DNA from: a virus
Virus record (IMG/VR): IMGVR_UViG_3300025732_000024
Location: 31,305-95,304 of that record
DNA: 64,000 bases
Direction: 5' to 3' (one strand)
In this document: positions 3,933-47,088 of the stretch, piece by piece
Layout: each line of letters begins with the position of its first letter
How positions within the stretch are numbered: position 1 is the stretch's first letter
The notes under the pieces: model-generated
What the model saw: only the letters and a program-made list of their open reading frames with translations
Told to the model about the DNA's origin: nothing
Database searches by the model: none
Position numbers and translations under genes: made by a program

Positions 3933-5072
3933 TTACATAAAGATGGGTGATTGATTTAAAGTCTTGAGCAGTTCCGCCGCGTGAGATTCAACCTCTTTAG
4001 AGTCAGGCTGTGAAGGGTTCACAACAGGTTCTTTAATTGATTGCTCCAAGTTAATAAGAGGCTTTGCTCTTTTTTCAATCAATTCCAAGTGAAACTCAAT
4101 GTGTCCAAGTTTGTCCGATTGGGACTTAGTGTGAAAAGCGATATCTTCACTAGGAACAGCAGAAAATAGCTCATTAAATTCACTATTTGATAACTTAGCT
4201 TCAGATACTAAATCTTCTGCTTTCTGGCGTAAATCATAATAGCGACTAGCAACTATTTCTTTCTTTTCAAAGTTAGCGATTAGAGCAGATTTTTCAGTTA
4301 ATGCTGACTCCAGATGCTTAACCTGACCAGCTAATTTGTCGTTTTCAGAAGTGAGGATTTGCTGCTTGCTAAGAGCATCAGACAAAGCAGTTTTAGCAGA
4401 TGCTAATTCTACTTCCAGGGTTTTATTGTCTAATTCATTCATACTATTTGTTGGTGAATTAAGGTAAAAATTGGGATTACCATTGATAGCTACATTTTTC
4501 AATTCCACAAAAGATTTACCATAACCGACACTAGGATCTGCGGGTATATCCTCAGAGGAAATTTCAAATAAAACTATCTTTGTAGCCTCTAACAAAGCCT
4601 TTTTTGTTAGCTCCCTATAACCATCGTTATCAGAATATTCAGCAGGTGTAACTACTCGATATTCCTCAACTGAATAACCAAAGCTAATACCGCCAGATGT
4701 CCCGTCCTCAATATCAGACATGAACTGATCTGCCAGGGCATTTTTAGATAACTTAGCCATAGCAAAACCCTTTTCGCCGTCCAAAATCACATTCTTGATA
4801 ATGCCGATTTTCTGACCGCGAGTATGATTTTTTAAGAATGGACAAGTACCACTAGCCACCCTAGACAAATCCCAGGCATTAGGGTCATGGGATAAATACT
4901 CATCAAATACCACACTAGCTCCGTCGGGAAGCTCAGATAAATAACCGTATCTTTCACAGATATTCCCCTTAGAGGAAAAGGAAAAACCAACGGTTCTTTC
5001 CTCTCGGTTCAACTGTAAATCCGTAGACAGAAACTTGGTTAATATAGTTTTATTTTTGATTGCTGTGGGCAT
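3933..5072 (-). CDS. HK97-type prohead protease fused to coiled-coil scaffold
   Basis: PFLKNH, GISFGY and EISS motifs; C-terminal coiled coil. Confidence 0.8.
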   Translation of the reverse strand: MPTAIKNKTILTKFLSTDLQLNREERTVGFSFSSKGNICERYGYLSELPDGASVVFDEYLSHDPNAWDLSRVASGTCPFLKNHTRGQKIGIIKNVILDGEKGFAMAKLSKNALADQFMSDIEDGTSGGISFGYSVEEYRVVTPAEYSDNDGYRELTKKALLEATKIVLFEISSEDIPADPSVGYGKSFVELKNVAINGNPNFYLNSPTNSMNELDNKTLEVELASAKTALSDALSKQQILTSENDKLAGQVKHLESALTEKSALIANFEKKEIVASRYYDLRQKAEDLVSEAKLSNSEFNELFSAVPSEDIAFHTKSQSDKLGHIEFHLELIEKRAKPLINLEQSIKEPVVNPSQPDSKEVESHAAELLKTLNQSPIFM

Positions 5073-5133
5073 GAATAAAACTTCAATTTAAACTATCAAC
5101 ATTTTAGCAATAGCCATTTATAATATAATTAGA

Positions 5134-5166
5134 TAATCAATGGAAGTCGCACATAGTAGCGATTTT
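5134..5166 (+). other. Protospacer for CRISPR array 1 spacer 40193-40225, in the divergent intergenic region
   Basis: TAATCAATGGAAGTCGCACATAGTAGCGATTTT is the exact reverse complement of 40193-40225; 5' flank TTAGA. Confidence 0.97.
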
Positions 5167-5217
5167 CACCAATATTAATGTATAATATTAAAAATAATTT
5201 ACGCTATAAATAAACCA

Positions 5218-5475
5218 GTGATTGACCATCCTAACTCTTACGAAAATCTCACAACAGAGGAAAAAATAGGAATCCTTATTTTTATCTGTAGAGAATCAAA
5301 AAACATTTCCAGAAAGCAATTAGCATCTAAAACAGGAAAGACTGTAGAGGTTGTCAGTGCTATTGAAAACCTGTTTCAACATCGAGAAGGCAAAAGGCAA
5401 TCAATAACCTATGGTGAGATAGAAATGATTGCCCAAGCGTTAGAAGTTCCCATATCCCATATACTCCCTAAATAG
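5218..5475 (+). CDS. XRE-family HTH regulator
   Basis: ISRKQLASKTG...SAIEN...IAQALEVPI pattern; TATAAT at 5181-5186. Confidence 0.8.
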   Translation: MIDHPNSYENLTTEEKIGILIFICRESKNISRKQLASKTGKTVEVVSAIENLFQHREGKRQSITYGEIEMIAQALEVPISHILPK

Positions 5476-9698: not shown

Positions 9699-9787
9699 TG
9701 CCTTGTTTCCTTTGTGTTTTCTGTATATGAATAATATAGTCTATCCATTAACAATATGTCAACCTTTAGGATAAGCTATTTTTGATG

Positions 9788-10225
9788 TTATTTCAATAAA
9801 ACGACAACTCCACATTTTCTTGTCATTGGTCTGCCCCAGTCGTCTTTATAATTTTCCGTTATGTCAATGCTTATACTCGTTTCTGTTTTGTTTACTATAA
9901 AATAATTTTTTCTGCCAATTCTACCTTCAGGTAAGCCACTAGCTAAAAGTGCCTTAACTCCTTTAATTTCAGTAGCCGTTACGTGACTATTATTCTTACC
10001 TTTTATTGATTTAACTTGATTCTTGGTTGTTGTAGTTGCTGCTTCTGTTAATTCTTTGTTTAATCCTTCTAACTTATCTTCTAGAATAACTAACCTATCA
10101 ATATAACTTCTTATTCCTCTATAAATTTCCCGCAAGCACGCCGCTATCTGTTTATTTAAAACAAGTATTTTAAATCTAATTTCTTGAATTAAACTTTGTT
10201 GTTTTTTGCTTATTGTAGTAGTCAT
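9788..10225 (-). CDS. Hypothetical protein with shared N-terminal module (start MTTTISK)
   Basis: Repeat promoter/RBS directly upstream. Confidence 0.7.
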   Translation of the reverse strand: MTTTISKKQQSLIQEIRFKILVLNKQIAACLREIYRGIRSYIDRLVILEDKLEGLNKELTEAATTTTKNQVKSIKGKNNSHVTATEIKGVKALLASGLPEGRIGRKNYFIVNKTETSISIDITENYKDDWGRPMTRKCGVVVLLK

Positions 10226-10390
10226 TGCCGTGTCCCTTGTGTTTTGTGTATATGAATAATATAGTCTATCCATTAATAATATGTCAACTACTTTTTTCTT
10301 AATTTTATACTGAATTTTAAAATATTTATTTGATACAGAGTGACTAGCTACTTACAATAAAAAACATCCAGTTGTCTGGATGCTTATTTT

Positions 10391-10849
10391 TTAGAAGGGT
10401 AGATTTTCTGGGGTTATTGACTGTTTATCTTTTTTCATTTGCCTTAACCAAGGTCTTAAGTATCGGCAATTTGTTATTTTTTGTTCCTCTTCTTCAGAGA
10501 AATCTTCTAACCAGCATCTTATGTCTTGACCTTCTTTCCAAAAAGACCTGCGACAAACCTCCGCTATTGCCTCGTCTAAATCACTCGTCTCTATCAAGTT
10601 CCTGTTCATTGTCTCGTAGCTGTAGCCCTTTTTTATTAAGACTTCATCTACAGAAGTGCCGTCAAGACATAATAAATAATTTGAATGCTTGATAGAAAAA
10701 TCTAATAATTTAACGTCTTTTTTGTCTTTATAAATCTCCTTTATTTCGTATCCGTGTTCCTTTAATTTTATCTGTACTAGCTTTGCTACAAATTTTTGGT
10801 ATGCTGTGAGTTCTTCTTTACACCATGCCAGGTTAAAATTTGTAACCAT
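10391..10849 (-). CDS. Hypothetical protein
   Basis: Own promoter repeat and AGGAG RBS. Confidence 0.7.
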   Translation of the reverse strand: MVTNFNLAWCKEELTAYQKFVAKLVQIKLKEHGYEIKEIYKDKKDVKLLDFSIKHSNYLLCLDGTSVDEVLIKKGYSYETMNRNLIETSDLDEAIAEVCRRSFWKEGQDIRCWLEDFSEEEEQKITNCRYLRPWLRQMKKDKQSITPENLPF

Positions 10850-10985
10850 TGTCTGTGTCTCCTGTTGTTTATTTGTTTTTCCTTACATAATTAATATAGT
10901 CTATCCATTAATAATATGTCAAGGGTTTTAAAAAATATTTTTTTTGGCATTAAAAAACCCTGAGTTAATCAGGGTTTTAGCTTTA

Positions 10986-11414
10986 TTAAAATTTTATATT
11001 TTCTGGCTTGAACAATCCGTTCTCTACAGTTTTACCTAACGCTACTAAATTTTCTCCAGTGTACTGCTCTAAATAAACTTTTATTTCTCCAGGTAAAAAA
11101 CCAGCCTCTAACATCAATAGTTCAACGCTACGTTTATTGGAAATATGCCAAGTGATGATTGCATTGTTGGCTCTATAAGCCCCTGACTTGAAGTGGACTA
11201 CCCAATACCCGTCATCGTGCTTATGTTCCCAAAAATAATCATCAAGTAACTGTCTTTCATACCAAGGAATTGTTCCTCGGTAAAGTTTGCCAAACTCGTC
11301 ACCTTCTGCTAATTTTTCATATTTTTCTAGTAGAGCGATCGCCTTCTTGATTTGATTTTCTTTTAATACTAACTTTTTGTCAAATAATCTACCGTTTAAT
11401 TCTACTAATGCCAT
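10986..11414 (-). CDS. Hypothetical protein
   Basis: Own promoter repeat; terminator at about 10952-10978. Confidence 0.7.
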   Translation of the reverse strand: MALVELNGRLFDKKLVLKENQIKKAIALLEKYEKLAEGDEFGKLYRGTIPWYERQLLDDYFWEHKHDDGYWVVHFKSGAYRANNAIITWHISNKRSVELLMLEAGFLPGEIKVYLEQYTGENLVALGKTVENGLFKPENIKF

Positions 11415-11537
11415 TGCCTTGTTTCCTTTGTGTTTTGTGTATATGAATAATATAGTCTATCCATTAATAATATGTCAAGGGTTTTAAAAAATATTTTTTT
11501 GACATTAAAAAACCCTGACTAGGTCAGGGTTTCAGGC

Positions 11538-20394: not shown

Positions 20395-21162
20395 TAGTCA
20401 GTGCGTTTTGCTTTTTACCCGACCACCGCAACATCACGATTATAACACCATATCCAATATTATGCAAGCGGCTGAAACCCTTGCTGTATCTACATCTCTA
20501 CTTTTACTTACAGTATCCTCCTCATCCAGTGGAGACTGCTCATTTGGATTTTTTCTTTTGGAAAATTCTTTTCTTGGATTCCATTCCCATAAGCTCTGCA
20601 TCATGAGAAGGATACTGTAAGTAAAACGCCAAATCCTTGTAGGGTAGGCGGTTCACCGTCAAGCTAGTTAAAGCTGTTGCGATGATTGTACTGATACAGG
20701 CGTCAAGATTGTGACTTTTGTAAAATTCAGTATAAATCTAAGATAAAAGGTGTTGACAATTAATCTGAGATAAATTATATTGATTACATGAGAGGCAAAA
20801 CACTAATCCCAAAACAACCCGCAGGCCTCACGGGGTGCAGATGGTAGGGACTCTGCATTAAGGAAGATGTTTGAACAAATTGAGTCCATGAAATCCGATG
20901 CTGCCAAATGGCAGCCTGAGTTAACTGAAACGTCATTATCTGACTATATGCTTACCCTAGCATCTGCTGGGGATTTAGAAGCTATAGAATGGGTAATAGA
21001 ACACATTATGGAGTCTTCAGAAGAAGACTCTGAAGAGTTTTAGTTGTTACTAACTCCCAATTTGACGGCCATTTCAATCCCGAAATATTAAGTTATGGGG
21101 TAAGAATCAAATTCTTAATGGCCGCATTCCCCGAAACCGTTATTCAATAGGGGACTAATCAA

Positions 21163-24372: not shown

Positions 24373-24428
24373 CCCACCTGATGAGTCCGGCTGGCGACCG
24401 GACGAAACACTCCGATGAGTGTCGTGGG
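24373..24428 (+). ncRNA. Type I hammerhead ribozyme, copy A
   Basis: CCCAC-CUGAUGA-GUCCGG(CUGGCGA)CCGGAC-GAAA-CACUC(CGAU)GAGUG-UC^-GUGGG; cleavage predicted after C24423. Confidence 0.93.
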
Positions 24429-24455
24429 CAGCCGTATAATTACACTGGAGAATTT

Positions 24456-24756: not shown

Positions 24757-24812
24757 CCCACCTGATGAGTCCGGCTGGCAACCGGACGAAACACTCCGAT
24801 GAGTGTCGTGGG
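24757..24812 (+). ncRNA. Type I hammerhead ribozyme, copy B
   Basis: Near-identical to 24373-24428 (one loop-II change); direct repeat extends to about 24833; cleavage predicted after C24807. Confidence 0.93.
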
Positions 24813-24839
24813 CAGCCGTATAATTACACTGGATAAACT

Positions 24840-32101: not shown

Positions 32102-33040
32102 ATGAGTATTATTTACGCTAAAAAGACTACCGCACAGGGCGGAAGATGTATCAAGTGCAGCAGATACCGATGGTTAGAGGCACGAAGCGACGACGGCGGC
32201 ATCTGTACAGAATGCGTTCTTAGTCTGAAAAAGCAAAAATTAATCAGCTTCGCCAGACCACCTAAGCCACCTAAACCAGTAAAAATCAAGCCACCTAAAC
32301 CACCTAAGCCACCTAAGCCACCCACAAGAAGAGAGATAGTAACAGCAACGTCGGACAAAATACTGGAAGTCATGAAGAAGTCCAAGACTCCGTTAAGTGT
32401 TCACGAATTAGCCGCAAAACTTGACATTCAACCCAATAGGGCAAAGTTGCAATGGCTAAGAAAAATATGTCAAAAAATGACAACCAACAAGCTACTTGCT
32501 CAATCTGACAGTCGTTACAAACAATACATTAACATCTCCAGGCGACACTTGTTGTCTAAATTATCCACACACAATTACTTACGGAATGCAAGGGAATTAT
32601 CTATAGATAAAGTCAAAAAATTCCTAGAATCATCCACAACCGCTCAAAGTTGCTCACAGATATTAGATGGATTGAATGGACTAACAAGAGTAGTATTATA
32701 CAAAGTTCTACGGATTTTAATAGCTAGAGATTTAGTTGAATATCATGTTAATTCAGCAGGAAAAAAAACTACATTTTATGCACTCAAATCCAATCAATTA
32801 GCAATTACTGATTTAGAAAAAATCCGAGAAAATTGTATTGACAACAAGATTATAAATATAGTAAAAAATGGGGGTAATAAAATTACAAAGAACAAAATCG
32901 TCAAGCAGTTAGGACTACGTTCCCCAGGTAATTCTCGCGTGAAAAAGACCCTAGAGCGACTCATCCAAAACGGAAAGATAACCCGTGAACCACTAGGGGA
33001 ATACAAAAACGGATTCATTTATTTACTAAAGCAACCATGA
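32102..33040 (+). CDS. Zn-finger, PPK repeat and multi-winged-helix protein
   Basis: CIKC..CTEC, (PPK)n, several wHTH-like segments; stop overlaps next ATG. Confidence 0.6.
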   Translation: MSIIYAKKTTAQGGRCIKCSRYRWLEARSDDGGICTECVLSLKKQKLISFARPPKPPKPVKIKPPKPPKPPKPPTRREIVTATSDKILEVMKKSKTPLSVHELAAKLDIQPNRAKLQWLRKICQKMTTNKLLAQSDSRYKQYINISRRHLLSKLSTHNYLRNARELSIDKVKKFLESSTTAQSCSQILDGLNGLTRVVLYKVLRILIARDLVEYHVNSAGKKTTFYALKSNQLAITDLEKIRENCIDNKIINIVKNGGNKITKNKIVKQLGLRSPGNSRVKKTLERLIQNGKITREPLGEYKNGFIYLLKQP

Positions 33041-33552
33041 ACAATCATTACGGCATTCCCCAAACACGGGATAAATGTTACGGCGCAGCAGCCTGTCTCA
33101 CCTATTGGGTATTCAAATGCAGAGACCGTAAACGCAGTCCGGCAATGGGGACTAAAACCTGGAGTTATCTAGAATCAAGCATCAGAAATTCAGCCGAAAT
33201 ATCCACTAATTTAGAGGATTATTTACAGCATCTTTGTGACAAACTTTGCTCACAATTACGACCGATTGAGCTAACAAAAGTCATTCAACCTACCCAGAGA
33301 ATCCTGCGGGTAAATGAAGATGCGACGGAAATCAAGGAACTGCCATTAGACCAAAATCTAGTCTTTATGGGTTGGCTAGACCTAATCAATGATATTGCTC
33401 CTCACGGTTTCTCTGAGTGGGATGTACTGGAATTACTGAGAACTAAAGCAGGGATTATTCAGGTAGTCTGTAGATTGAGATTTGAAGAAGACCGGAGCTT
33501 GGGACTTGATGAACCAGAGGAATTTATAGAAATCGAGGCGACAAATGTTTGA
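33037..33552 (+). CDS. cas11: Type IV-B Cas11-like small subunit
   Basis: Helical 171-aa gene directly upstream of csf2. Confidence 0.55.
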   Translation: MNNHYGIPQTRDKCYGAAACLTYWVFKCRDRKRSPAMGTKTWSYLESSIRNSAEISTNLEDYLQHLCDKLCSQLRPIELTKVIQPTQRILRVNEDATEIKELPLDQNLVFMGWLDLINDIAPHGFSEWDVLELLRTKAGIIQVVCRLRFEEDRSLGLDEPEEFIEIEATNV

Positions 33553-34675
33553 TAATTATGATATTTTTGATAGGGAAAAATTGACCCTACATTGCCTGAT
33601 TACACTGCAAACACCTCTATCACATATTGGTGAAGTGTCGGGCAATGTGAGCAACTTAAAAACATCAAAATTACTTGATTTTGAAGGCAATCCTAGAAGT
33701 GTTTTTACCTATTCAGGTAATGCTATCAGGAATGGCATTTTACGCCGTGTAGGGGTGGCAGCAACACTTAAAGAACTAGGAATTCAGATAAACCCTGACA
33801 CGCACCATACCATGTTTGCAGGTGGCAGAATTGACGGAAGCACAGCTTCAGATATGCAATTAGACAAGAAAATCCGGGTGCTAATGCCTTGGCTATCAGT
33901 GCTGGGAACAGCCAAACCGACGGGAGTATTTGGTAGTAAAGATGCTCAAATGGTGCAGGGAAGAATTAACGTTGGCTCTGGGTATCTCATCTGCTACGAA
34001 TCAGCAGAATACGTATACAATCAAGTACCTGCGCTTCTACCACCAAAAGTACAGCCTGTTGTGGAGCAATTATTAATAGCTAAAAATAGGCTATCTTCTG
34101 ATCCTTTTACTCCTACATCGGCTGAAGATATTGATTCTTGGGAGCAAGCTAAATCTGAATATTTGCCATTGCTGCAAAAACATTTAAAGACATGGACGGA
34201 ATACTTGACCATTGACCAGACGACGCGCAGAGATAGCACCTTAGACCCTAATCTGCTCAAGTTTCTACCTGGTGAGGTGCAGACACAATTGAAGGGTGAC
34301 GGTACTGCTAAAGAGAAAAAATCAGACCAGATGATTGCATCCGATAGGCTGATTATGGCAGGAGCAAAACTTTATTCTAGATGGGATTTAAACTGTACCA
34401 AAATTGAGCAAGGATGGATTTTTGATACATTACTAAAATTCTCAGAATCACCCTACATTGGCGGTAAAGGCAACCGTGGCAATGGCAGGGTACATCTAGA
34501 TTTTTGGTTTCAATCTTCAGATGAAAAAGGCTTACTTTGCTCCCTTAAAGATGGTGTTTTGAGCGATCGCTTCCTCAATGCCCATCAAAAATACAGGGAG
34601 TACATCAATCAATACCAGCATTTCCTAAGTGAAGCGAAAACATCCAATGAATTAAGGAGTCTATTAGGTGGTTAG
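33545..34675 (+). CDS. csf2: Type IV Cas7-family backbone protein
   Basis: TPLSH, SGNAIRNGILRR, FAGG, LSVLG, GRINVG, TRRD, IGGKGNRGNG. Confidence 0.88.
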   Translation: MFDNYDIFDREKLTLHCLITLQTPLSHIGEVSGNVSNLKTSKLLDFEGNPRSVFTYSGNAIRNGILRRVGVAATLKELGIQINPDTHHTMFAGGRIDGSTASDMQLDKKIRVLMPWLSVLGTAKPTGVFGSKDAQMVQGRINVGSGYLICYESAEYVYNQVPALLPPKVQPVVEQLLIAKNRLSSDPFTPTSAEDIDSWEQAKSEYLPLLQKHLKTWTEYLTIDQTTRRDSTLDPNLLKFLPGEVQTQLKGDGTAKEKKSDQMIASDRLIMAGAKLYSRWDLNCTKIEQGWIFDTLLKFSESPYIGGKGNRGNGRVHLDFWFQSSDEKGLLCSLKDGVLSDRFLNAHQKYREYINQYQHFLSEAKTSNELRSLLGG

Positions 34676-35030
34676 TGGTAACTGGTTCATCACACCTCAC
34701 GCTGTACGGAAATTCATGCAAATCACCGGATACGAATACAACGAAAGCCTAAGCAGGCTTTTGATTATTTCCAGTACAGCTAAGTTCGTCAAAGTCCTTC
34801 CCAGTGGATTTAGCCTGTACCGTCAGTATTTCCGCCGTTCTACACAAGTCCGGGAAAAGCGCAAACAGGAAGGCAAGGTTAACAACGCCAGAACAAATCT
34901 AGGTCTGGTAATTGCACCCCCAAACAAAGAAGGACAGCTACCACAACTGGTAACTGTCCTTTACAGAAATCCTTATAAAGCTACTCAAAAGATACAGCAA
35001 ACAATTTGCCATCTTCAGAACTTTGAATGA
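34668..35030 (+). CDS. Hypothetical protein (possible toxin-like HAxxK motif)
   Basis: ITPHAVRKF...LVTV. Confidence 0.4.
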   Translation: MVSGNWFITPHAVRKFMQITGYEYNESLSRLLIISSTAKFVKVLPSGFSLYRQYFRRSTQVREKRKQEGKVNNARTNLGLVIAPPNKEGQLPQLVTVLYRNPYKATQKIQQTICHLQNFE

Positions 35031-35262
35031 CTACCGCGTTGGGCGGTAGTTCGTAAACTTCACCGGGGAAAATTCCCTCGGCTATTTCGTATTCATCAAA
35101 TTCCCAGTTTTGGATGTCTTGGACATCCTCAGAGACTTTTTGTTCTGAGATATCCGCAACAAGATTGGTACAAAGGTTGTCTACATAGTTGATACCCCCG
35201 CGCACCCGCGCCCAGTGGGTAACTTTGCTCGCTTTGCTAATGATTTCCTTCAATATGGGCAT
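34981..35262 (-). CDS. Hypothetical protein in insertion within the IV-B operon
   Basis: ORF coupled to 35237..35431. Confidence 0.55.
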   Translation of the reverse strand: MPILKEIISKASKVTHWARVRGGINYVDNLCTNLVADISEQKVSEDVQDIQNWEFDEYEIAEGIFPGEVYELPPNAVVIQSSEDGKLFAVSFE

Positions 35263-35431
35263 TCCATTCCTCCGCTATTTGTTTAATCAGTCCTGAAACA
35301 TTTGGCTCACCCTTCTTTGAGCCGTTAGAAATGAACAATCCCCTTTGGGTTGCCATTTCTCTGAGGATTTGGTGATGCTCTACCTCTAGGGAGATAGAAA
35401 TCACATACTTGGGTTCGTCTCTTTTTCGCAT
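35237..35431 (-). CDS. RHH-like protein (similar to 17432..17680)
   Basis: ISISL...GEPNVSGLIKQIA. Confidence 0.55.
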   Translation of the reverse strand: MRKRDEPKYVISISLEVEHHQILREMATQRGLFISNGSKKGEPNVSGLIKQIAEEWNAHIEGNH

Positions 35432-35451
35432 TCTTTTCTTGGTATAGACTA

Positions 35452-36203
35452 ATAGTAAATCAATTTTTTCTATTAGTCAATACCAATTAACACTGAATTC
35501 TATCGGGTCTTTTTGTTACGCGAAGGAATCTCCGCGTAGTGTGGACAGGATAGAGATGTAGCTATCCCAATCCATCGTCACATTTTTGAAACAGGTAATC
35601 CAGACACAGGAGTCTGATAATGTTCTTAGCTTGTCAACTCTGGACAAGCCAGTTTGTAATTTTGTGTTATTGAGTTTAGCGAGATTTCTCGCTACTCTAT
35701 CTTGAGTCAACTCTTCGATTTCTTTGTTGTTCTCACGTAAAGCGTTAAAGTAACGCTCCGCATTTTCTTGTCCTAAATTGCTTGTTACTTGTTCTTTGTT
35801 TTCTGTAATATACCCTTCTAAATCCATGAAAAAGTCGGCATAGCCTTCTCTTTTAAGAACTTCTCTTTTTGCTGATTCGTAGCAAACAGCTTGAGCATTT
35901 TCTACCAAATTAAGGACTTCACTTCTAATGTCTGATGCCCATGCTATTTGTTTTTCAGTTCCATTTAGTTCAGGTAATGTCACGGTTAGCTCCTCTAATT
36001 TTGCCTCTAAATCAACCAATCTAAGAACATAGGACTTGAAAGCCTTGACACCTTTAGATAAAATATCCTTAATCACTTGGATTTGGTGCTTAACGATTCT
36101 AATCAAAAATGTCTTTGTAACTTTCATTGCCCTGTCTCCTTTACTTGGTATGTACCAATAGTAAATCAATCTTTTTCATTAGTCAATACCAGTCAACACT
36201 GAA
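35452..36203 (-). promoter_or_regulatory. Duplicated sigma70-type promoter (35452-35497 and 36158-36203)
   Basis: TTGACT-N17-TACTAT on the minus strand in both copies. Confidence 0.75.
35516..36127 (-). CDS. Hypothetical protein with the shared N-module and an LxGTEKQIAWA motif
   Basis: Start MKVTK with AAGGAG RBS. Confidence 0.7.
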   Translation of the reverse strand: MKVTKTFLIRIVKHQIQVIKDILSKGVKAFKSYVLRLVDLEAKLEELTVTLPELNGTEKQIAWASDIRSEVLNLVENAQAVCYESAKREVLKREGYADFFMDLEGYITENKEQVTSNLGQENAERYFNALRENNKEIEELTQDRVARNLAKLNNTKLQTGLSRVDKLRTLSDSCVWITCFKNVTMDWDSYISILSTLRGDSFA

Positions 36204-36228
36204 CTTTTCCAAGTAACTTTTCTAACTT

Positions 36229-36918
36229 ATGCAAAACCTACAGATTACCGCGCACCTATCCACAGCTATCGGCACTTACGATAACTGGAGTCCTTCAATC
36301 GAGGGGATTCTGATTTACCAGCTACTTGTAAGGCATGACTTATTGTCTTGCAATCCTACATCACAAGAAGTAGCTGAAATGCAAGATTTCCTAGCCAAGA
36401 ACCTGCCCTTGCAGCAAACATCTATAAAAGATGAAAAATATTATTGCTCTAGCTCACCTTACTATGTAGTCCAGGGTGAAGCTACCGATAAATACAGGAA
36501 GCGGTGGGATAGTCATGATATTAACTTGAATTGGGGAAAAAGAAAGCCGCAATTCAAAACTGGAGAAGGTGCAGAAAAATCCTATGATTTACCTTTGTAT
36601 GTGCGCTTAGTTTCTAGCATTAACTGGTTTGTGGTTGGTGATAAAGATGAAATCAAAAGTTTATTATTATCCGTAGATCACATCCAAAAAAAACGCAGCT
36701 ACGGCAACGGTGAAGTACGGGAATGGCAGATAGGAATAGCTTACGACGACTATCATCTATGGCGAGATGATAAACTAATGAAGCCCATTCCTGTTAGGTT
36801 GATTGACCAGAAGCTAGATAATCCCCAGATGGTTTGGGGATGGAGAAGCCCCGCATGGTTGGCTGTCAACAAAGAATTATGCTATATGCCAAAGGATAAT
36901 GTGATTTATGCAAGATGA
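36229..36918 (+). CDS. csf3: Type IV Cas5-family protein
   Basis: YRKRWD, KSYDLP, VGD, KKRSYGNGEV. Confidence 0.82.
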   Translation: MQNLQITAHLSTAIGTYDNWSPSIEGILIYQLLVRHDLLSCNPTSQEVAEMQDFLAKNLPLQQTSIKDEKYYCSSSPYYVVQGEATDKYRKRWDSHDINLNWGKRKPQFKTGEGAEKSYDLPLYVRLVSSINWFVVGDKDEIKSLLLSVDHIQKKRSYGNGEVREWQIGIAYDDYHLWRDDKLMKPIPVRLIDQKLDNPQMVWGWRSPAWLAVNKELCYMPKDNVIYAR

Positions 36919-37624
36919 TGAAAGGCTGATGTTTGAAGGTTGGGCGACCCTGCCAGCCTTTAAAAAGAAAGTAGAACAAGCTAAGATTGTAATCAGAGAG
37001 GCATTAGAAATTACACCTGGTTATGTAGCAGTAAGCTGGGGTAAAGATAGCGTGGTAATGCTGCATTTATGCCAACAGATAAAGCCTGATATCATAGCAG
37101 TAAATTACGGCTCATCGGAGCAAGATATTGTTGACAACTATAGCGAAGTAATTAACACTTATCTGCAAAGATTCCCCACCGATTACAAAGAATTAATAGG
37201 ACTTCCTGAATGGGCTAACGACTCAAATACAGTACAGGATAGATGCAATCAAATATTAGAAGGAACGCATACTTTAGCCTTTGTAGGACTCAGAGCAGAA
37301 GAGAGTAAAAACCGTAAACGCTCTATTCTACAAAATGGTTTAATCCATCAATATAAGTCAGGAAGATACAAAGGACATTACCGCGTCTGTCCTCTGGGAT
37401 GGTGGACATGGCGAGACATTTGGGGTTATACCATTGTCAATAATTTACCCTATCTTGATAGTTACGATTATAAAGATAGAGAGCGCGGTAGAACCAATGC
37501 CCATGCTAGATATTGGTTTTCAAGCAATAAAAACAAGCGAGTATCTGAAGGCAAGATTGACACGATTAGAAAATACAACTTTCCTTTGTTTACATTGTTG
37601 CAATCAGAAGGCATATATGATTAA
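36908..37624 (+). CDS. cysH: CysH/PAPS-reductase-like protein (IV-B signature)
   Basis: VAVSWGKDS, VGLRAEES..R, CPLGWWTWRDIW. Confidence 0.88.
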   Translation: MQDDERLMFEGWATLPAFKKKVEQAKIVIREALEITPGYVAVSWGKDSVVMLHLCQQIKPDIIAVNYGSSEQDIVDNYSEVINTYLQRFPTDYKELIGLPEWANDSNTVQDRCNQILEGTHTLAFVGLRAEESKNRKRSILQNGLIHQYKSGRYKGHYRVCPLGWWTWRDIWGYTIVNNLPYLDSYDYKDRERGRTNAHARYWFSSNKNKRVSEGKIDTIRKYNFPLFTLLQSEGIYD

Positions 37625-37766
37625 AGAAATATTGTTTGATGAAGTCCCCAAAGAGTATTTATTGCAAGTCAATAAATCTATTAACATTAGATTTGCTAAT
37701 GGGAAAAAATACCAAAGAATGATTTTTGATGCTAATATAATAAATTAGAAATGTTGAGGTAAAAAC

Positions 37767-38459
37767 ATGGATTTGGGAATATATTTGACAGACAAATCTG
37801 CATTTGAGCAGTTAGCTTCTAAGGAAATTACGATTGATTTGACTACTCAAGAAAGTTTTTCACCTATTAAACGCTGGGAGATATTCAGTAGAGTCCGTTT
37901 TGAGTACGTGCGTCCGACTTGTGTACTACGCTCTCAATCAGTGCCGTCAGTGTTGCCTAGTATGCCAGAAAACGAAAAAGAATATGGAATAAAAACATAC
38001 TTGCGCTCAGGGTTAAACCCCAATATTGAAGCAATAGAAAAGCTACGCCAAAGCCTAGAAAACCCTGTACCTGGAACTTTGGCAGATGCGCTAAAAACCT
38101 ATTACAAAACAGAGCAAGTAGAAATTCCAGGTACAGATGCTTCCTTATTCCCTGCGGATTACATTATAGTTCACGATTTGCATCATGTATTACTGGGTAT
38201 TGATACATCCCACAGAGGAGAATTAATTGTCATAGCCTACGAAAGTGGCATGATTCAAAAGACAGAATTTCCCATACTTTTGATTGAGCAATTAGAAATA
38301 TTTGTCTCTGATTTGTTCAAAGATATTAAGTCCCATGAACTTCTAAAATATTGGAACATAGGAGTTAAATCTGCGGAATTAGTTGACAATTGGGAGTGGT
38401 GGCATGATTTAGATTTACCCTTGTCATCAGTCAGAGAAAAATACAATATCATCTTATAA
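37767..38459 (+). CDS. Protein with Coq4-like metal-binding domain
   Basis: HDLHHVLLGIDTSHRGE (HDxxH-x11-E); C-terminal LPLSSVREKYNI. Confidence 0.6.
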   Translation: MDLGIYLTDKSAFEQLASKEITIDLTTQESFSPIKRWEIFSRVRFEYVRPTCVLRSQSVPSVLPSMPENEKEYGIKTYLRSGLNPNIEAIEKLRQSLENPVPGTLADALKTYYKTEQVEIPGTDASLFPADYIIVHDLHHVLLGIDTSHRGELIVIAYESGMIQKTEFPILLIEQLEIFVSDLFKDIKSHELLKYWNIGVKSAELVDNWEWWHDLDLPLSSVREKYNIIL

Positions 38460-38515
38460 AAATTAGGTGCGCGGGCTTGTCAAACCGCGCGCCTAACCCA
38501 AAATCAGAGGACACA

Positions 38516-39304
38516 ATGAGTAACTGCTACCTTTGCGCTAAACCAGGGAACAAGCCGCTAGAGTTATCCAATACCTTTACAATGCACTCATCTGCAAAAT
38601 GCCCTGACTCTAAGACACTGTGTCCACGCTGTCACAGCACCATCGCAGGAGACCAGAAGCAGCTATGGTATTGGAATCCAGGCAAAAGCAAATGGTCTAA
38701 ATTATGGGGAAGGTCGCTGTCTAGAGTCTACCAACAAGACACATTAGTCGCACCTGTCTTAGACGGTGAACGCACTGAAGGCAAGGATACCTTTCCCGTC
38801 GTCAAAAACCTATTAACCAGAGTCGAAATCAGAGAGTATCTGCTCAACCCTCCCGTGCCACCGTTTACAATTGCCATAGCAGAGTCAGGGCAAAAGCACA
38901 TTATGCCCTGGGCATTAGAGGCATACAACCGTGATTACTTTCCTGTGCTATTTGAACTAGACATAGTCTATATTGATTGCAGATTTAAAGAATATCTGCA
39001 CACTTATGAGCAATTAATGGGATTAGGTTTTAGCAAGACTGAGATTGACTTAGGTGACTATCGCAGTGATAGATTAATGAAAGTGTTCGCATCACCAAGC
39101 GCGAATGATAGATATTGGGAATTAGAAAACAAGATTGCAACCATCAGAGAAACCAGGTTACTGGCATTAATCAATTACGTGGCTCAATGTCCAGAAGATG
39201 ACATAAAAGAAGAAGTTGTCCAGGAAGAAATCACAGAAAAACCCATTGCTGTTAATGTTCCCAAAGCAGCAAAGCAGTCCGTTCAACTATCATTATTTGG
39301 ATGA
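38516..39304 (+). CDS. csf1: Type IV Cas8-like Zn-finger subunit
   Basis: CYLC, CPRC, LLNPPVPPF...GQKH. Confidence 0.8.
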   Translation: MSNCYLCAKPGNKPLELSNTFTMHSSAKCPDSKTLCPRCHSTIAGDQKQLWYWNPGKSKWSKLWGRSLSRVYQQDTLVAPVLDGERTEGKDTFPVVKNLLTRVEIREYLLNPPVPPFTIAIAESGQKHIMPWALEAYNRDYFPVLFELDIVYIDCRFKEYLHTYEQLMGLGFSKTEIDLGDYRSDRLMKVFASPSANDRYWELENKIATIRETRLLALINYVAQCPEDDIKEEVVQEEITEKPIAVNVPKAAKQSVQLSLFG

Positions 39305-40028: not shown

Positions 40029-40155
40029 ACTTTCCCAGTCTATTCTAATGTTCTGCAAGGTACTAGCTTTGCTCCATCTCATCCAGGATGATATAAAATT
40101 GTTTCGTTCTTCCCAGGTTTTTTGTGGGTTTGTTTCGTTCTTCCCAAGTTCTCGT

Positions 40156-40624
40156 GTTTCGCTCCACCCCAACTCTTTCGCCCCTTAGCAAGAAAATCGC
40201 TACTATGTGCGACTTCCATTGATTAGTTTCCTCCCACCCCAATCCTTTCGCCCCTTAGCAAGCTAAATAAGCCTTTGCTAATTTAGGAGCTAGTTCCTGT
40301 TTCCTCCCACCCCAATCCTTTCGCCCCTTAGCAAGCGTTAATCAGGTCGGTTTTGGGGTTATTTTCTGTGGAGTTTCCTCCCACCCCAACTCTTTCGCCC
40401 CTTAGCAAGAATAGAATGTTATTATCTACATAGCTTATGTCTGAGTTTCCTCCCACCCCAACTCTTTCGCCCCTTAGCAAGTTTTGAGGTTATCTGTGTC
40501 GTATCAGAGTCAGATGTTTCCTCCCACCCCAACTCTTTCGCCCCTTAGCAAGCTATCAGCATCCAGGTTAATTCTTCTATCCGTTGCGTTTCCTCCCACC
40601 CCAACTCTTTCGCCCCTTAGCAAG
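40156..40624 (-). CRISPR. CRISPR array 1: 7 repeats of 37 bp, 6 spacers of 33-37 nt
   Basis: Repeat CTTGCTAAGGGGCGAAAGAGTTGGGGTGGGAGGAAAC at 40156, 40226, 40299, 40373, 40445, 40516, 40588; most divergent 3' end at the trailer repeat 40156. Confidence 0.98.
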
Positions 40625-40771
40625 TCCGTCTTTTCAAAGCCTTATGCAGCAAGGGTTCTGTGAGCGGTTTTGGCGAACCTCTTAAAAAATCTCATTTCAG
40701 CCGCTTCAATTTCTTGCGATGTGTAGCGAAGGAAGCCTGAAAATATTACAATGCCTTGGTTCTGAGGATTT

Positions 40772-40908
40772 GGCGAAAGCCTTGGGATAGAAAGCCAGCC
40801 ATAGCTCCGGCTGGTCTGTGAGGGTCATCACTTCTCCTCTTACTTTTCAGGACGAATCCCTAGAAGTCATAGGCTAACCAAAGTCAGCCACCCGCCCAAA
40901 CTGCGGTG
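40772..40908 (-). ncRNA. Putative tracrRNA 1; leader at 40625-40771
   Basis: Promoter TTGACA(40942-40937)-N17-TAACAT; anti-repeat CUUUCUAUCCCAAGGCUUUCGCC (40794-40772) pairs with repeat 1; homologous to 46278-46414. Confidence 0.8.
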
Positions 40909-41305
40909 ATTTGATGTTAGCCTACATCCTATTAATTGTCAATCAATATATCTATAGTCTTGTTGATGTTTCCGATAATTGATACAATATTCAAACCAGC
41001 ACCGCAAAGGTGGCACACGCACCACCTAAGAGGTTTTACCACTGGCAATATTTCACCCGTGAGGGCGGGCTACTTTATATGTCTAATGATACCTCAAAAC
41101 TGTTGTTGCAACAATTGATTCAGGATTTACCAGGGGTGAAGGACTTGCTGTTTCACGGTTGGTAGAGGTTTTTGTTAATTATCGAAAAGTCAATAAGACT
41201 ATTGAAGAAATGATATGATTACTGAAACCATCCCACTCAGGAATATTTGCGGTATTCCGGTGGTTTCAATGGTTAGTCCACTCTACTTAATTCCCTTAGT
41301 GAACT

Positions 41306-42067
41306 ATGAACAGTTTAACAAAGATTGACGTAATTAATAAAGATGGTGATTTAGTAGTTGACTCACGGTTAATCGCTGATGAATTAGGGATTGAACATGA
41401 AGTGTTTATGCGTACTGTTAAAAAGTACGAAACCAAGATACAACAACGCTTTGGAATAATCCGTTTTGAAAACGGAAAAATAGACGGGCGTGGTAGACCT
41501 GAAAAATACGCACTTTTAACAGAATCACAGGCTACCACTTTGATGACTTTTTCTCGTAACACGGATCAGGTTGTGGAGTGTAAATTAAACCTTGTGGCAG
41601 CGTTTGAAAAAGCTAAATCTGTAATCAAATCCGTCATTCCCCAGCAATCGGTACGTATTCAAGAATTAGAACTTGAATTAGCACTTGCCAAGGAAATCAA
41701 CGCGAGCAAGCGGCTTGACTCAGATATGCTTACAATGCACGGGAAGGAAACAGTTTTAGCGTTACGTGGAATGTCGGATCAGGTAATCAAATCCGAGGTA
41801 TTGGTAACTGAGATTGTGCAACCGGAAACTGGTAAAACCGTCAAAATTCTCACAGCAGATCAACTCAAGTCAGAAATTAAAAAACGTACAGGGCAAAAGA
41901 TACCCTCGCTTAAATGGGTAGCCGATAAATTACGTGCTGCAAATCGTGATGATTTATTAGTGCCTGTTACCCGTCACAGCACCAATGAATACATCACGTC
42001 CGATTCACTGGATGAAGTTATTGATTTGGTATTCGGAACTGCCAGACAAACATTAATTGGGGAGTAG
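41306..42067 (+). CDS. Rha-family antirepressor
   Basis: VVDSRLIA, LLTESQATTLMTFSRNT, KLNLVAAFEK. Confidence 0.85.
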   Translation: MNSLTKIDVINKDGDLVVDSRLIADELGIEHEVFMRTVKKYETKIQQRFGIIRFENGKIDGRGRPEKYALLTESQATTLMTFSRNTDQVVECKLNLVAAFEKAKSVIKSVIPQQSVRIQELELELALAKEINASKRLDSDMLTMHGKETVLALRGMSDQVIKSEVLVTEIVQPETGKTVKILTADQLKSEIKKRTGQKIPSLKWVADKLRAANRDDLLVPVTRHSTNEYITSDSLDEVIDLVFGTARQTLIGE

Positions 42068-42526
42068 TTAATTTAGTCGGTCGCATCTTTGGGGCGATCG
42101 CAGCTTCGTAATTCAGTAAGAAACACAAGGAGTGATGAAAAATACATGATTTATGACTACGCTGACCTTTATGATTATTCTATGATAAACGTAGGTAGTC
42201 GGGTTAGATCAACGATTCATAAAAACATGGCTGGGATAGTTGCAAAGAAAGAAGTAATAGAAGTATCCGGCATTCCTTCTGCTACCTTTATCACGGTTCA
42301 ATGGGATAACGGTGAAATATCACATCCGTATCCGCACCAGATAGCTATTGAGCTAGTTCTAAATAAATAAACTTGTCAAATTATTATTGTTACAACTTAT
42401 CGAAAAGTCAATGAGACTATTGAAAACATGATATGATTACTGAAACCATCCCACTCAGGAATATTTACGGTATTCCGGTGGTTTCGATGGTTAGCTTTTC
42501 ACCCGGAAAGGACGGGTTACTTTGCT

Positions 42527-43129
42527 ATGAACAGTATATCAGTTTTCGCGCTTAATGGAATCTCTGTAGAGTTAGACAAAGATTTTATCAGTCTCAATAA
42601 ACTATGGGAAATGGCTGGCAATCCAGAGAATCAAGATCCTCGTCAATGGGCAAGATTACCTCAGACAATCAGGCTAATCTCTCAAGTCCTTACGGAGCAA
42701 GGGTTTCAAGATAATAAGGAGAACAGGAAATTTGTTGTGGTTGTCAAAAGAGGCAAGTGCGGTTATACAAAAGCTATTCCTGCTATAGCGGCTGAGTATG
42801 AGTTGTACTTGAAAAAAACTCAGAGGGCATTAACTTTTGGAATCAGAGAAAAAAACATCCAAGCCTACTTAGCTCGAAAACTAAAAGGCAAAATTGAGAT
42901 CAAAACTTTAGCTGGGTTTATTGACATACTGACGCAAACAGAAATTATTGAAGTTAAAAATATTCGTGAGTGGAAGTCTGCTTTGGGGCAAATCTTAGTA
43001 TATGGAGATTACTACCCATCACATCAAAAAAGAATCCATCTGTTTGGCGAAACTGAAGAGTCATTTTTAAACATGGTACGTCAGCACTGCGAAAAAAGAG
43101 GAGTAAAAGTAACATGGCAGAAAATATAG
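42527..43129 (+). CDS. KilA-N-like domain plus PD-(D/E)xK nuclease domain
   Basis: ISLNKLWEMAG..PRQW; IDILT..IIEVK..WKSALGQ. Confidence 0.75.
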   Translation: MNSISVFALNGISVELDKDFISLNKLWEMAGNPENQDPRQWARLPQTIRLISQVLTEQGFQDNKENRKFVVVVKRGKCGYTKAIPAIAAEYELYLKKTQRALTFGIREKNIQAYLARKLKGKIEIKTLAGFIDILTQTEIIEVKNIREWKSALGQILVYGDYYPSHQKRIHLFGETEESFLNMVRQHCEKRGVKVTWQKI

Positions 43130-44378: not shown

Positions 44379-46247
44379 ATGAAAACAATCAAAATCAAGG
44401 TAAAGCTAACACCTAGTCAAATAGAATCCTGCGATAAATATTTAGAAGAATTATCCTGGTTGTGGAACTTGGTCCTAGCCAATCAACTGCACAATCACTG
44501 TATTCGCTGGTATGAATGGGCTGCTAAACTTAGTGCCGAATTAGCAAAAACCAACGAGAAGTTAGAGAAATTAAAACCAGAACAACAGCAATTAATTAAA
44601 GATTATTACAACTCCACAACCAAGCCTAAGCTAAGTAAAAAAGACCAAGAATTAGTCAACAAATTCAACATACTCTCTAGATGGAGTCCCTTCGATTTAG
44701 AAGGGATTATTCCCGTCCCTTTGCGTATTGGTAACAGTGCTTATGAAGGACTATCTTGCCAAATTGCCACAGGTGGGAGCTACTGGAAACGAGATGACAA
44801 CACCGTCATTCCCGTTAACACCAAGAAAGGCATAGCATTCATCAAAGGGTCGAAGTTAGTCAAGGGTGACAGACCCTGGCAGCGAATAGAAATAAAGTCC
44901 CATGAGTACAGGAAATTCCCCGGCGGTAAATACGAAGGACGGGAATTAATCACCTTAGAAAAATTCGATAATCTCAACGGATTAAACACACTAAGAGCAT
45001 CTCAAAACCTACCAGATTTAACCGTTTCTTCTCACTACATAGGTGGTCTATTGGGATTCTTCAAAGAATCTTGGAAAGCATTTTTGGATTCAAAAAGGAC
45101 AATCAGCAGGAAGCCTAAATTCAAAAAAGATAACGATAAAATTGCAACCTTGTCTAACAGTCAATGCCCACCAAACCGCATAGATGTTGACAAAAACATC
45201 ATAGCCATAACCGGATTCAGTGCAGTGAAAGTTGATGATAAATCCTGGGTAAAACGACTGAATTTATCCCAGTCCTTACCCCGCACCTATATGTTGACAA
45301 AGCAACAATCAGGCTACTACATAAACATTATAGTTGCTCATCCACTGCAAGAAGAGAAGTCAATATTAGCCAACAAACTACCCAAAGTCAAAAAACAATT
45401 TGGAGAAGACAGTCAAGAGTATGCAGATATTAAGTCAAAACTAAAATTCATTGAACAACAAATCAAGGAATCATCAGTCATTGAAGGCAAGGGATTAAGT
45501 GTAGGCATAGACCCAGGCGTTCAGTCAGTTGTGTCCACAGACCACGGTGCTTTATTTTTGCCAAATTTATCTAGGGAGCGTGTTTCTATCCACATAGAAG
45601 AACTCCAATCAAAACTAGATAATGCTGAATCAATCAATGATAAAAAGTGGAAAGAAGCAGGGAACAAAACACCTAGACCTAGAACCAATACCGAGATTAA
45701 ACTACAAGATAAAATCAGAAGATTGCATGAACGCGGCAGCAATTCATCCAATGCCTTTAATCACAAATTATCCACAAGATTATCGCGCACCTATGAACAT
45801 ATTGCCTGGGAAAACACCCAAATCAAAAACCTACTCAAGCAAGTAGAACCCAAATCACTACCAGAAGGTACCGGCTACGCTCACAATGGTGCATCTGCTA
45901 AACGCGGATTAAATTGGATTATGAGACAAAGATGTTTAGGTGATTTAGAAAAAAAGACAAAGCTAAAAGTTGAAAATCGCGGTGGCAGTTTTCAGCAGCC
46001 ACCAGCTAACTACACATCCCAAACTTGCCACCAATGCGGACAAAAGGGAGAACGATTATCACAGCATGAATTTATCTGTAAAAACTCCGAATGTAGACTG
46101 TTTAACGTCCCACAACAAGCAGATACCAACGCAGCCAGGAATCACAAACAGAACGCCGGATTTGAATTAGGAGAAGTCAAGTACAACGGCGTAAGATTGA
46201 CATACGAAAAACCCCAAAGATTCAAGAAAAAACGCGCTGACAGTTGA
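44379..46247 (+). CDS. TnpB-derived type V (Cas12-like) effector, 622 aa, RuvC triad intact
   Basis: MKTIKIKVKLT start; RKPKFKK; GIDPG (D378); AWEN (E478); YTSQTCHQCG...CKNSEC; ADTNAARN (D582); tracr/leader/array directly downstream. Confidence 0.88.
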   Translation: MKTIKIKVKLTPSQIESCDKYLEELSWLWNLVLANQLHNHCIRWYEWAAKLSAELAKTNEKLEKLKPEQQQLIKDYYNSTTKPKLSKKDQELVNKFNILSRWSPFDLEGIIPVPLRIGNSAYEGLSCQIATGGSYWKRDDNTVIPVNTKKGIAFIKGSKLVKGDRPWQRIEIKSHEYRKFPGGKYEGRELITLEKFDNLNGLNTLRASQNLPDLTVSSHYIGGLLGFFKESWKAFLDSKRTISRKPKFKKDNDKIATLSNSQCPPNRIDVDKNIIAITGFSAVKVDDKSWVKRLNLSQSLPRTYMLTKQQSGYYINIIVAHPLQEEKSILANKLPKVKKQFGEDSQEYADIKSKLKFIEQQIKESSVIEGKGLSVGIDPGVQSVVSTDHGALFLPNLSRERVSIHIEELQSKLDNAESINDKKWKEAGNKTPRPRTNTEIKLQDKIRRLHERGSNSSNAFNHKLSTRLSRTYEHIAWENTQIKNLLKQVEPKSLPEGTGYAHNGASAKRGLNWIMRQRCLGDLEKKTKLKVENRGGSFQQPPANYTSQTCHQCGQKGERLSQHEFICKNSECRLFNVPQQADTNAARNHKQNAGFELGEVKYNGVRLTYEKPQRFKKKRADS

Positions 46248-46277
46248 CAATTAAAACTGCTCATGCTAATATCAAAT

Positions 46278-46414
46278 CACCGCAGTTTGGGCGGGCGGCT
46301 AGTTTAATATTAGCCTATGACTTCTAGGGATTTATCCTGAAAAGTAAGGGGGAAGGTGACAACCCCCATAGACCAGCCGGAACTATGGCTGGCAGCCTTC
46401 AAAATCACTCGCGC
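46278..46414 (+). ncRNA. Putative tracrRNA 2; leader at 46415-46561
   Basis: TTGACA(46244-46249, overlapping the cas stop)-N17-TAATAT; hairpins co-vary with tracrRNA 1; anti-repeat-like CAGCCUUCAAAAUCACUCGC at 46393-46412. Confidence 0.78.
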
Positions 46415-46561
46415 AATGCCCAGAACCAAGAAAATGCAAGGGATTCAGGCAATCCTTTCGATACATAGCAAGTTGCTAAAGCGGCTGAAATGAGATTTTT
46501 CAGAAGACCCGCGCAAATGGCACTCAGAACCCTTGCTAGACAAGACTTTGAAGATGCGGCA

Positions 46562-47088
46562 CTTGCAAGAAGGGCGGAGGGATGAGAGGTGCTGAAACTA
46601 TTCTGATGGGATGAACGAGCTTATAGCCTGCGACTTGCAAGAAGGGCGGAGGGATGAGAGGTGCTGAAACTATTCTGATGGGATGAACGAGCTTATAGCC
46701 TGCGACTTGCAAGAAGGGCGGAGGGATGAGAGGTGCTGAAACAACGTTAGCGGATACATTACCCTCTAAAGGCATACAACCTTGCAAGAAGGGCGGAGGG
46801 ATGAGAGGGGTTGAAACGCGTGTGGCTGACTTTGGTTAGCCTATGACTTCTAGGGACTTGCAAGAAGGGCGGAGGATAGAAAGGACTGAAACCTCCAGAA
46901 ATTTAATAGCATTATCATTGCGGACAGCAGCTTGCAATAGGCAGAGGAAAAAGAAGGACTGAAACTAGCTTAAAGCAGCAATCAATCAACTTTACCAACC
47001 CTTGCAGCAACGCCAGACCAGGAAGGACTGAAACGCGAAACAGCAGCTTAATGATTGCCGCAATAACAAGCACAAAGAAGGCCGAAAC
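46562..47088 (+). CRISPR. CRISPR array 2: 4 near-consensus 37-bp repeats plus 4 progressively degenerate ones
   Basis: CTTGCAAGAAGGGCGGAGGGATGAGAGGTGCTGAAAC at 46562, 46634, 46706, 46781; variants at 46857, 46931, 47001, about 47054; spacers 1 and 2 identical. Confidence 0.96.

Follow-up and report, generated by a model that had tools for sequence, protein, structure and literature searches.

We observe that a spacer in a phage-borne CRISPR array matches, over its full length, an intergenic site in the phage's own genome, and we think it reasonably probable that this spacer derives from the phage itself or from close kin, was integrated into the array in inverted ("flipped") orientation, and is tolerated as a PAM-less guide. 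The self-matching spacer is probably inert. The effector family next to it is already known, and so is this kind of self-match, the tolerated PAM-less self-targeting spacer; the wider locus, with its dual tracr-array modules, its kin- and self-directed spacers, and its type IV-B neighbor, is the more interesting part. The stretch of DNA analyzed (64,000 nt, hereafter the window) comprises bases 31305-95304 of a complete virus record of 95,304 bp (95.3 kb) in which direct terminal repeats are present.

On the plus strand, positions 5134-5166 read TAATCAATGGAAGTCGCACATAGTAGCGATTTT, which is the exact reverse complement of the trailer-end (last full) spacer of array 1 (40193-40225, minus strand), with 33/33 positions matching and 0 mismatches. 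Within the window, target and spacer are the only two matches at ≤3 mismatches (chance expectation 0, based on 100 shuffles), and the whole 95,304-bp genome likewise contains exactly two copies of the 33-nt sequence. The preliminary description of this DNA had claimed a perfect self-match in the noncoding gap between the protease and XRE genes, and on both points it is borne out: the target sits within a 145-bp gap between a prohead protease or scaffold-like gene (3933-5072, minus strand; Peptidase_S78, phrog_4523), the first gene leftward, and the gene for an 85-aa HTH_3 (XRE-type) regulator (5218-5475, plus strand), the first gene rightward. The pair of spacer and target recurs in an independent metagenome (JGI24766J26685), with the target and its flanks on one contig (L048) and an array of identical spacer order on another (L049), and it is therefore neither lethal nor an assembly artifact, the latter being ruled out by the separate contigs of this second sample. 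We see the pair in near-identical strains only, namely, the phage studied here (whole genome, G000) and the strain of L048/L049; in the sister phage G003, the effector of which is 98% identical, the trailer of array 1 is cut by the contig end, and a search for further relatives with an array 1 trailer found none.

The carrier is a lytic-type phage genome, with phage genes that include those for a large terminase, a portal, a protease, and a 4,694-aa tape-measure ORF. Relatives of its effector (63 to 68% identity) sit on contigs of genome assemblies from Nostocaceae, i.e., a Nostocaceae MAG, Anabaena sp. WFMT, and a Cuspidothrix MAG, which is why we regard the host as probably a member of the Nostocaceae, a filamentous cyanobacterium. 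A search of the genome showed that neither Cas1 nor Cas4 nor a thioredoxin is encoded by the phage, and the adaptation genes cas1, cas2, and cas4 are all absent from it.

Sequence comparison identifies the effector as Cas12p ("Cas12 hacker"), a phage-associated miniature type V nuclease that needs the host thioredoxin TrxA for cleavage, cleaves little without it, and is guided by a tracrRNA of ~185 nt with 37-nt repeats (bioRxiv 10.1101/2025.01.20.633832); structures are available as PDB 9jfs and 9jg3. The 622-aa protein encoded by cas12p (44379-46247, plus strand) aligns with PDB entry 9jfs_A, annotated "Cas12p," in a collinear and gapless manner over residues 1 to 613 (phmmer, E = 0, 1,131 bits), with ~85% identity as judged by eye from the printed alignment. 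The RuvC motifs are intact (GIDPG at 376, AWEN at 476, ADTNAA at 581), the zinc-finger cysteines are kept (CHQC at 550), all 13 residues of the TrxA pocket are identical (W44, Y45, W47, L51, W102, F105, L107, I110, I111, V113, L115, C127, and I129), and so are the basic residues of TB.b (7/7). A dead effector is thereby ruled out, and the earlier impression of an apparently active nuclease holds up in the RuvC motifs and in the TrxA-pocket residues. In its collinearity and in the retention of both sets of residues, the protein resembles the solved Cas12p. A 5′-GTN PAM has been measured for two divergent Cas12p orthologs, and the substitution D197A abolishes cleavage (bioRxiv 10.1101/2025.01.20.633832). 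Among the published PAM contacts, D197 and Q262 are kept here, and this ortholog may share the 5′-GTN PAM, although two of the four contacts differ (N261S and K332N).

The single effector is accompanied by two paralogous tracr-array modules. Downstream of cas12p lie a tracr2 unit with its leader (46244-46561, plus strand) and array 2 (46562-47090, plus strand), and tracr1, a paralog of tracr2, occupies together with its leader positions 40625-40942 of the minus strand, next to array 1 (40156-40624, minus strand; seven repeats of 37 nt with the GGAAAC end on the minus strand, and six spacers). We read array 1 on the minus strand because the AAAC 3′ end of its repeat pairs with the GUUU of the tracrRNA and because of the direction of the tracr1 promoter; array 1 is thus transcribed downstream of tracr1 and codirectionally with it. 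Both tracr units contain CAGUUUGGG, which lies behind a sigma-70-like promoter and carries the GUUU partner of the AAAC repeat end, and the promoter type TTGACA-17-TAAYAT is common to the two (TTGACA at 40942-40937 and, after 17 nt, TAACAT at 40919-40914 for tracr1; TTGACA-17-TAATAT at 46244-46272 for tracr2). Anti-repeat pairing amounts to −38.6 kcal/mol for tracr1 with repeat 1 and −26.3 kcal/mol for tracr2 with repeat 2. The repeats of 37 nt ending in AAAC, the GUUU pseudoknot partner in the tracrRNA, the phage context, and the absence of adaptation genes are all in line with described Cas12p systems (bioRxiv 10.1101/2025.01.20.633832).

Both modules are present in the sister phage G003, which shares zero canonical spacers with the phage studied here. 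The absence of shared spacers points to quick array turnover, so that both arrays appear to be alive and at least the self-matches of array 2 to be recent. An orphan or silenced module 1, which had been offered earlier as one way to reconcile a perfect self-match with an active nuclease, is hence unlikely, given a tracr1 promoter like that of tracr2, the −38.6-kcal/mol anti-repeat pairing, and the spacer turnover, and on these three grounds we reject the idea that module 1 is orphaned or decayed.

Several further features of the arrays were recorded. In array 2, five recognizable repeats are followed by a degenerate tail; its spacers 1 and 2 are identical and form a duplicated repeat-spacer unit (46599-46705) for which no protospacer was found in IMG/VR. 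The repeats of the tail (46857-47090) are progressively degenerate, still ending in CTGAAAC or CCGAAAC, and the tail is mostly kept in G003, where three of four tested segments match at full or nearly full length and the fourth matches in part; the tail sequences had no match in the other sequences compared. After the last full repeat of array 1, positions 40101-40155 hold two mini-repeats of 14 to 17 nt, GGGAAGAACGAAAC (minus strand), and nothing else in the genome matches the sequences downstream of these. A scan of two spacers against IMG/VR yielded 0 matches, array 1 had no match among GenBank phages, and its weak matches in three Nostocaceae genomes were judged not to be protospacers, the best one straddling a spacer-repeat junction. 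Among GTDB representative genomes, a host array with a matching repeat was found in none.

The orientation of array 1 determines where a PAM has to be sought. With the minus strand as the one that is read, the guide has the sequence of plus-strand positions 5134-5166, which form the non-target strand of the self-protospacer, and the PAM must therefore lie at plus-strand positions 5131-5133. These read AGA, not GTN, with neither a G at −3 nor a T at −2, so that the site is without the valid non-target-strand PAM, 5′ of the protospacer, that an interference-competent self-target would have. At the opposite end, positions 5167-5169 read CAC on the plus strand and thus GTG on the minus strand, a canonical GTN at the wrong end, which looks like the signature of a flipped spacer, i.e., of a GTN-selected acquisition that was integrated upside down. 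Among the explanations proposed earlier, the evidence favors a missing PAM, now sharpened to a PAM at the wrong end. Since GTN is required to open DNA, Cas12p should neither cut nor stably bind 5134-5166.

With respect to the other spacers, we compared all spacers of eleven related records by BLAST, each against all, which yielded three further self- or kin-directed matches; of the nine distinct spacers of the phage studied here, three match its own genome. Spacer 3 of array 2 (46743-46780, plus strand) matches the phage's own tape-measure ORF at 37 of 38 positions (G000 20702-20739, minus strand, outside the window), with TGG as the 5′ flank and GTN at neither end; the site and its flank are identical in the relatives G001 and G002. 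These two had been considered as CRISPR-less target phages, which we dropped, since their contigs end before the CRISPR region and hence hold no arrays. Spacer 4 of array 2 (46818-46856, plus strand) matches tracr1 DNA (40857-40895, minus strand) at 38 of 39 positions, with the mismatch at guide position 4 and again a TGG 5′ flank; it matches tracr1 of G003 equally well (38/39), whereas only its last 21 nt match the equivalent stretch of tracr2. The matches made by spacers 3 and 4 are absent from the sister phage G003. Conversely, an array 2 spacer of G003 (L001; G003 9818-9854) matches cas12p of the phage studied here (window positions 45402-45438, 36/36), and against the cas12p gene of G003 itself it has one seed mismatch, which changes D to N. 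Its target in cas12p is flanked by TTG at the 5′ side and by AAC, the reverse complement of GTT, at the 3′ side, which again places the PAM at the wrong end. Taken over the four self- or kin-directed matches, a 5′ GTN is found in none and an inverted GTN in two (P ~ 0.016, computed at the genomic AC/GT dinucleotide frequency of 0.0526). The lack of a 5′ GTN at the other self-matches is what survivorship of harmless spacers predicts.

In contrast to the self-matches, GTN flanks each of the three credible non-self or diverged protospacers assigned to related Cas12p arrays (GTA, GTG, and GTG; P ~ 1.5e−4), indicating that natural acquisition into these arrays is GTN-aware and that the self-matches are exceptions. 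The three cases are a spacer of contig L053 that matches contig L054, an L053 spacer whose target, with a GTG PAM and four seed mismatches, lies on L053 itself, and a spacer (L055 7203-7237) that is the first in a Cas12p array of 20 repeats, carried by a contig from a Cuspidothrix assembly, and that matches G003 at 1111-1145 (31/35) with a GTG PAM. The last match shows directly that this phage lineage is among the targets of Cas12p-bearing elements. The preliminary description had read a PAM hint, TTWGR, from two sites and had advised collecting the protospacer flanks of other spacers; these flanks contradict the hint, with GGTGG at the third self-target, ATTTG at the fourth, and GTA or GTG rather than TTWGR at 3/3 of the natural non-self targets, and TTWGR is rejected as a PAM.

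The same kin-directed matches bear on a further reading, in which the array 1 spacer would be a weapon aimed at rival phages that carry a 5′ GTN at the site, with the phage's own copy being spared by the absence of a PAM. That Cas12p arrays target kin is illustrated by the G003 spacer, which fits the cas12p of its sister perfectly and its own with one mismatch, by the L055 spacer directed at G003, and by the L053 spacer with four seed mismatches to its own contig, and virus-borne arrays in conflict between viruses are a known idea (PMC10848311). At the site itself, however, the flank TTAGA is identical in five out of five independent copies of the protospacer (G000, G001, G002, L011/L051, and L048), no rival bearing a PAM was found, and L012, the only more distant relative, has lost the site entirely. 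The GTG at the wrong end, moreover, indicates inversion rather than loss of a PAM. We therefore regard a weapon against kin as quite unlikely to explain this spacer.

Under the flipped-spacer reading that we prefer, spacers would enter the phage arrays in trans, presumably by way of the adaptation machinery of the Nostocaceae host, because the phage lacks cas1, cas2, and cas4 of its own. The source would be the DNA most abundant in the infected cell, i.e., that of the phage itself and of coinfecting kin. The host machinery may then have taken a 33-bp prespacer beside the GTG PAM in the head/XRE intergenic region and inserted this fragment upside down into array 1, so that the resulting crRNA would pair with the minus strand of the target while AGA occupies the place of the PAM on the non-target strand; lacking a 5′-GTN, the site would be neither cleaved nor stably bound by Cas12p. 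Correctly oriented self-spacers with a PAM would be suicidal and be lost, whereas inverted or otherwise PAM-less ones would persist, and the tolerated spacer would have been pushed to the trailer end by newer additions. Several observations count against this account. An inverted PAM is seen in only two of the four self- or kin-directed matches, and the two TGG-flanked ones need another account, such as slipping, later PAM loss, or PAM-blind acquisition. Three self-matching spacers out of nine are a high fraction for pure accident. Finally, the target lies between promoter-like modules, and array 1 is neighbored by a type IV-B cassette that has no nuclease.

The last two points lead to the immediate surroundings of the target. 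The preliminary description had placed the target over the −35 element of a TATAAT box, and this stands in part: the TATAAT at 5181-5186 is real, and the hexamer 17 nt upstream of it, AGCGAT (5158-5163), lies inside the target, but it is a poor match to a −35, and a consensus scan favors other promoters, namely, TCAACA-17-TATAAT on the plus strand (5096-5124) and TTTATA-17-TATTAT on the minus strand (5210-5182). With these preferred promoters, each of the two divergent transcripts would contain the target within its first ~40 nt. Promoter-like sites are no more numerous in the gap than expected from shuffling; at 5102-5126 and 5164-5188, two repeated promoter-like modules bracket the target exactly. 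An XRE operator repeated elsewhere was considered and rejected, since the palindromic TCGC-N8-GCGA of the target has no copy in the window besides the one in the spacer.

Beside array 1, a type IV-B cassette (33037-39304, plus strand) comprises cas11, csf2, two inserted ORFs, csf3, a cysH-like gene, an ORF of 230 aa without assigned function, and csf1. The five characteristic components of type IV-B, csf1, csf2, csf3, cas11, and the cysH-like gene, were all matched with PADLOC and NCBIfam models (with PADLOC, 2e−36 for Csf2, 8e−39 for Csf3, 2e−22 for Csf1, and 2e−7 for Cas11; PAPS_reduct, 5e−14), and models for DinG, Cas10, and Cas6 had no match among the cassette ORFs. The two extra ORFs between csf2 and csf3 are located at 34668-35030 (plus strand) and 35516-36169 (minus strand). 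The 230-aa ORF (37767-38459) was considered as a Cas6 candidate and rejected, as it has no family match and no look-alike in the ESM Atlas; it is found in G005 and L049 only and is therefore no conserved part of the cassette. The cassette stops ~850 bp short of array 1. Six further phage contigs from IMG/VR (G005 to G010) have the same cassette 2.4 to 8 kb upstream of cas12p; on L053 and L054, the two Nostocaceae contigs, no such cassette occurs within 10 kb of cas12p. Type IV-B systems come without a nuclease, an array, or Cas6, and their function and guide source are open questions (PMC8175902). Proximity and the co-occurrence with cas12p in G005 to G010 are only suggestive of crRNAs from the adjacent array serving as IV-B guides.

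It could thus be proposed that a nuclease-free binder, either a Csf complex or thioredoxin-free Cas12p, is directed by the crRNA to 5134-5166 and blocks the promoters of the head operon and of XRE. The position of the target in a divergent gap between repeated promoter-like modules, the complete cassette so close to array 1 and its recurrence alongside cas12p, the class-1-like GAAAC handle at the repeat ends, the low cleavage by Cas12p when TrxA is missing, and the open state of IV-B function and guide source can all be cited for such a role. Yet the PAM, which Cas12p needs for binding as it does for cutting, is absent; the other self-matches lie in coding regions or, in one case, in tracr1, and they are not conserved between the sister phages; and ~60 spacers of the six other contigs with IV-B and Cas12p (41 to 66% complete) contain no self-match. 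The cassette, moreover, lacks Cas6, and in the IV-B complex of known structure the bound RNA was heterogeneous and not crRNA (PMC8175902). The inverted GTG is accounted for by adaptation and not by regulation.

Known regulatory guides offer a further comparison. Francisella scaRNA, the long tracrRNA of Streptococcus pyogenes, and CreR of CreTA are conserved guides whose partial complementarity beside a valid PAM leads to binding without cutting. The array 1 spacer resembles them in that a guide RNA is directed at the element's own promoter DNA, but here the pairing is complete (33/33) and the PAM is missing. We consider repression of the two promoters unlikely, and the transcriptional control of late genes suggested earlier finds no positive support in the PAM-less site, in the coding-region self-matches, or in the sister phage, which keeps none of them. 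A broader version, in which IV-B Csf or thioredoxin-free Cas12p would load phage crRNAs and the PAM-less self-matches would be programmable operators that time the expression of late genes and of the CRISPR locus, strikes us as quite doubtful. If Csf took up these crRNAs and relied on another PAM, or on no PAM at all, it might bind at the self-matches; this, too, we judge to be unlikely or slightly worse than that.

We also considered pairing at the level of RNA, in which the array 1 transcript would bind the 5′ leader of the head-operon mRNA (start at ~5175), with or without a type-III-like Csf complex. Starting from the promoter-like site on the minus strand (5210-5182), this leader would contain the target within its first ~40 nt, the guide is of plus-strand sense and hence complementary to a minus-strand transcript, and Csf2 of type IV-B resembles the type III protein Csm3 (PMC8175902). 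Against this, the promoter call is not above chance, and in the other three matches the guide has the same sense as the transcript of the target gene, so that RNA targeting is no general property of these spacers. An antisense role is, in our opinion, highly improbable.

A number of other repeats were noted across the window. Two 80-nt direct repeats (24373-24452 and 24757-24836; 98% identical) have a hammerhead-like core, CTGATGAG...CGAAAC, and at gathering thresholds Rfam returned no family for these repeats or anywhere else within the window. Between array 1 and cas12p, a 98-nt direct repeat (41179-41276 and 42397-42494; 95% identical) is placed immediately upstream of a Rha-like gene (41306-42067) and of a KilA-N gene (42527-43129). 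At 9717-11515, a promoter-like module of ~83 nt (TTGACATATTATTAATGGATAGACTATATTATT, minus strand) occurs in four copies, each preceding one of a series of successive small genes. Seven tandem repeats of ~132 nt (44 aa) at 55830-56804 lie within an ORF of 477 aa (55371-56804), and a similar region is present in G010.

Returning to the flipped-spacer reading, self-targeting spacers are tolerated where the target has no functional PAM (reviewed in PMC6990116), and flipped spacers have been met in adaptation studies (e.g., PMC5059440). The case described here is in line with both, in that a perfect self-match stands beside an apparently active effector with a PAM only at the opposite side. It differs from the tolerated self-spacers of cells in that the carrier is a phage, acquisition would take place in trans, and the self-matching fraction of 3/9 is unusually high. 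In conflicts between viruses, mini-arrays carry spacers that target the virus itself or its kin. Virus-borne IV-B systems have also been reported, as have virus arrays with perfect self-targets, the role of which was left open, among them a Chiyouvirus mini-array with two 100% self-targets (PMC10848311). Like that mini-array, the arrays described here are viral, lack an adaptation module, and hold spacers with matches in the virus that carries them or in its near relatives; unlike it, they are accompanied by a complete effector from a family of known PAM, so that the self-match can be judged to be PAM-less and inverted.

Compared with published Cas12p, this phage is distinguished by two paralogous tracr-array modules for one effector with a IV-B cassette alongside, by several spacers that match the phage itself or close kin, and by S and N in the places of N261 and K332. 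According to the accessible text of the preprint (bioRxiv 10.1101/2025.01.20.633832; Wang et al.), Cas12p was characterized in Escherichia coli with designed guides only, and native targets of its spacers, self-matches, and a IV-B neighbor are not described in that text; the study is cited in PMC13728456 as since published (Nat Microbiol 2026;11:81).

With this complete phage genome, native Cas12p arrays come into view for the first time. The phage and its close kin are the source of the spacers, non-self targets are flanked by GTN, and every persisting self-match lacks a usable PAM, with two of them being visibly inverted. This pattern fits a phage array that is filled in trans without control of orientation and is then pruned by autoimmunity. 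It also advises caution, as a self-match at a promoter need not mean regulation. Type IV-B accompanies Cas12p in seven phage records, i.e., this genome and six related contigs, which makes the locus a good one for studying IV-B function; were the operator reading true, it would provide the first natural guide source and function for type IV-B.
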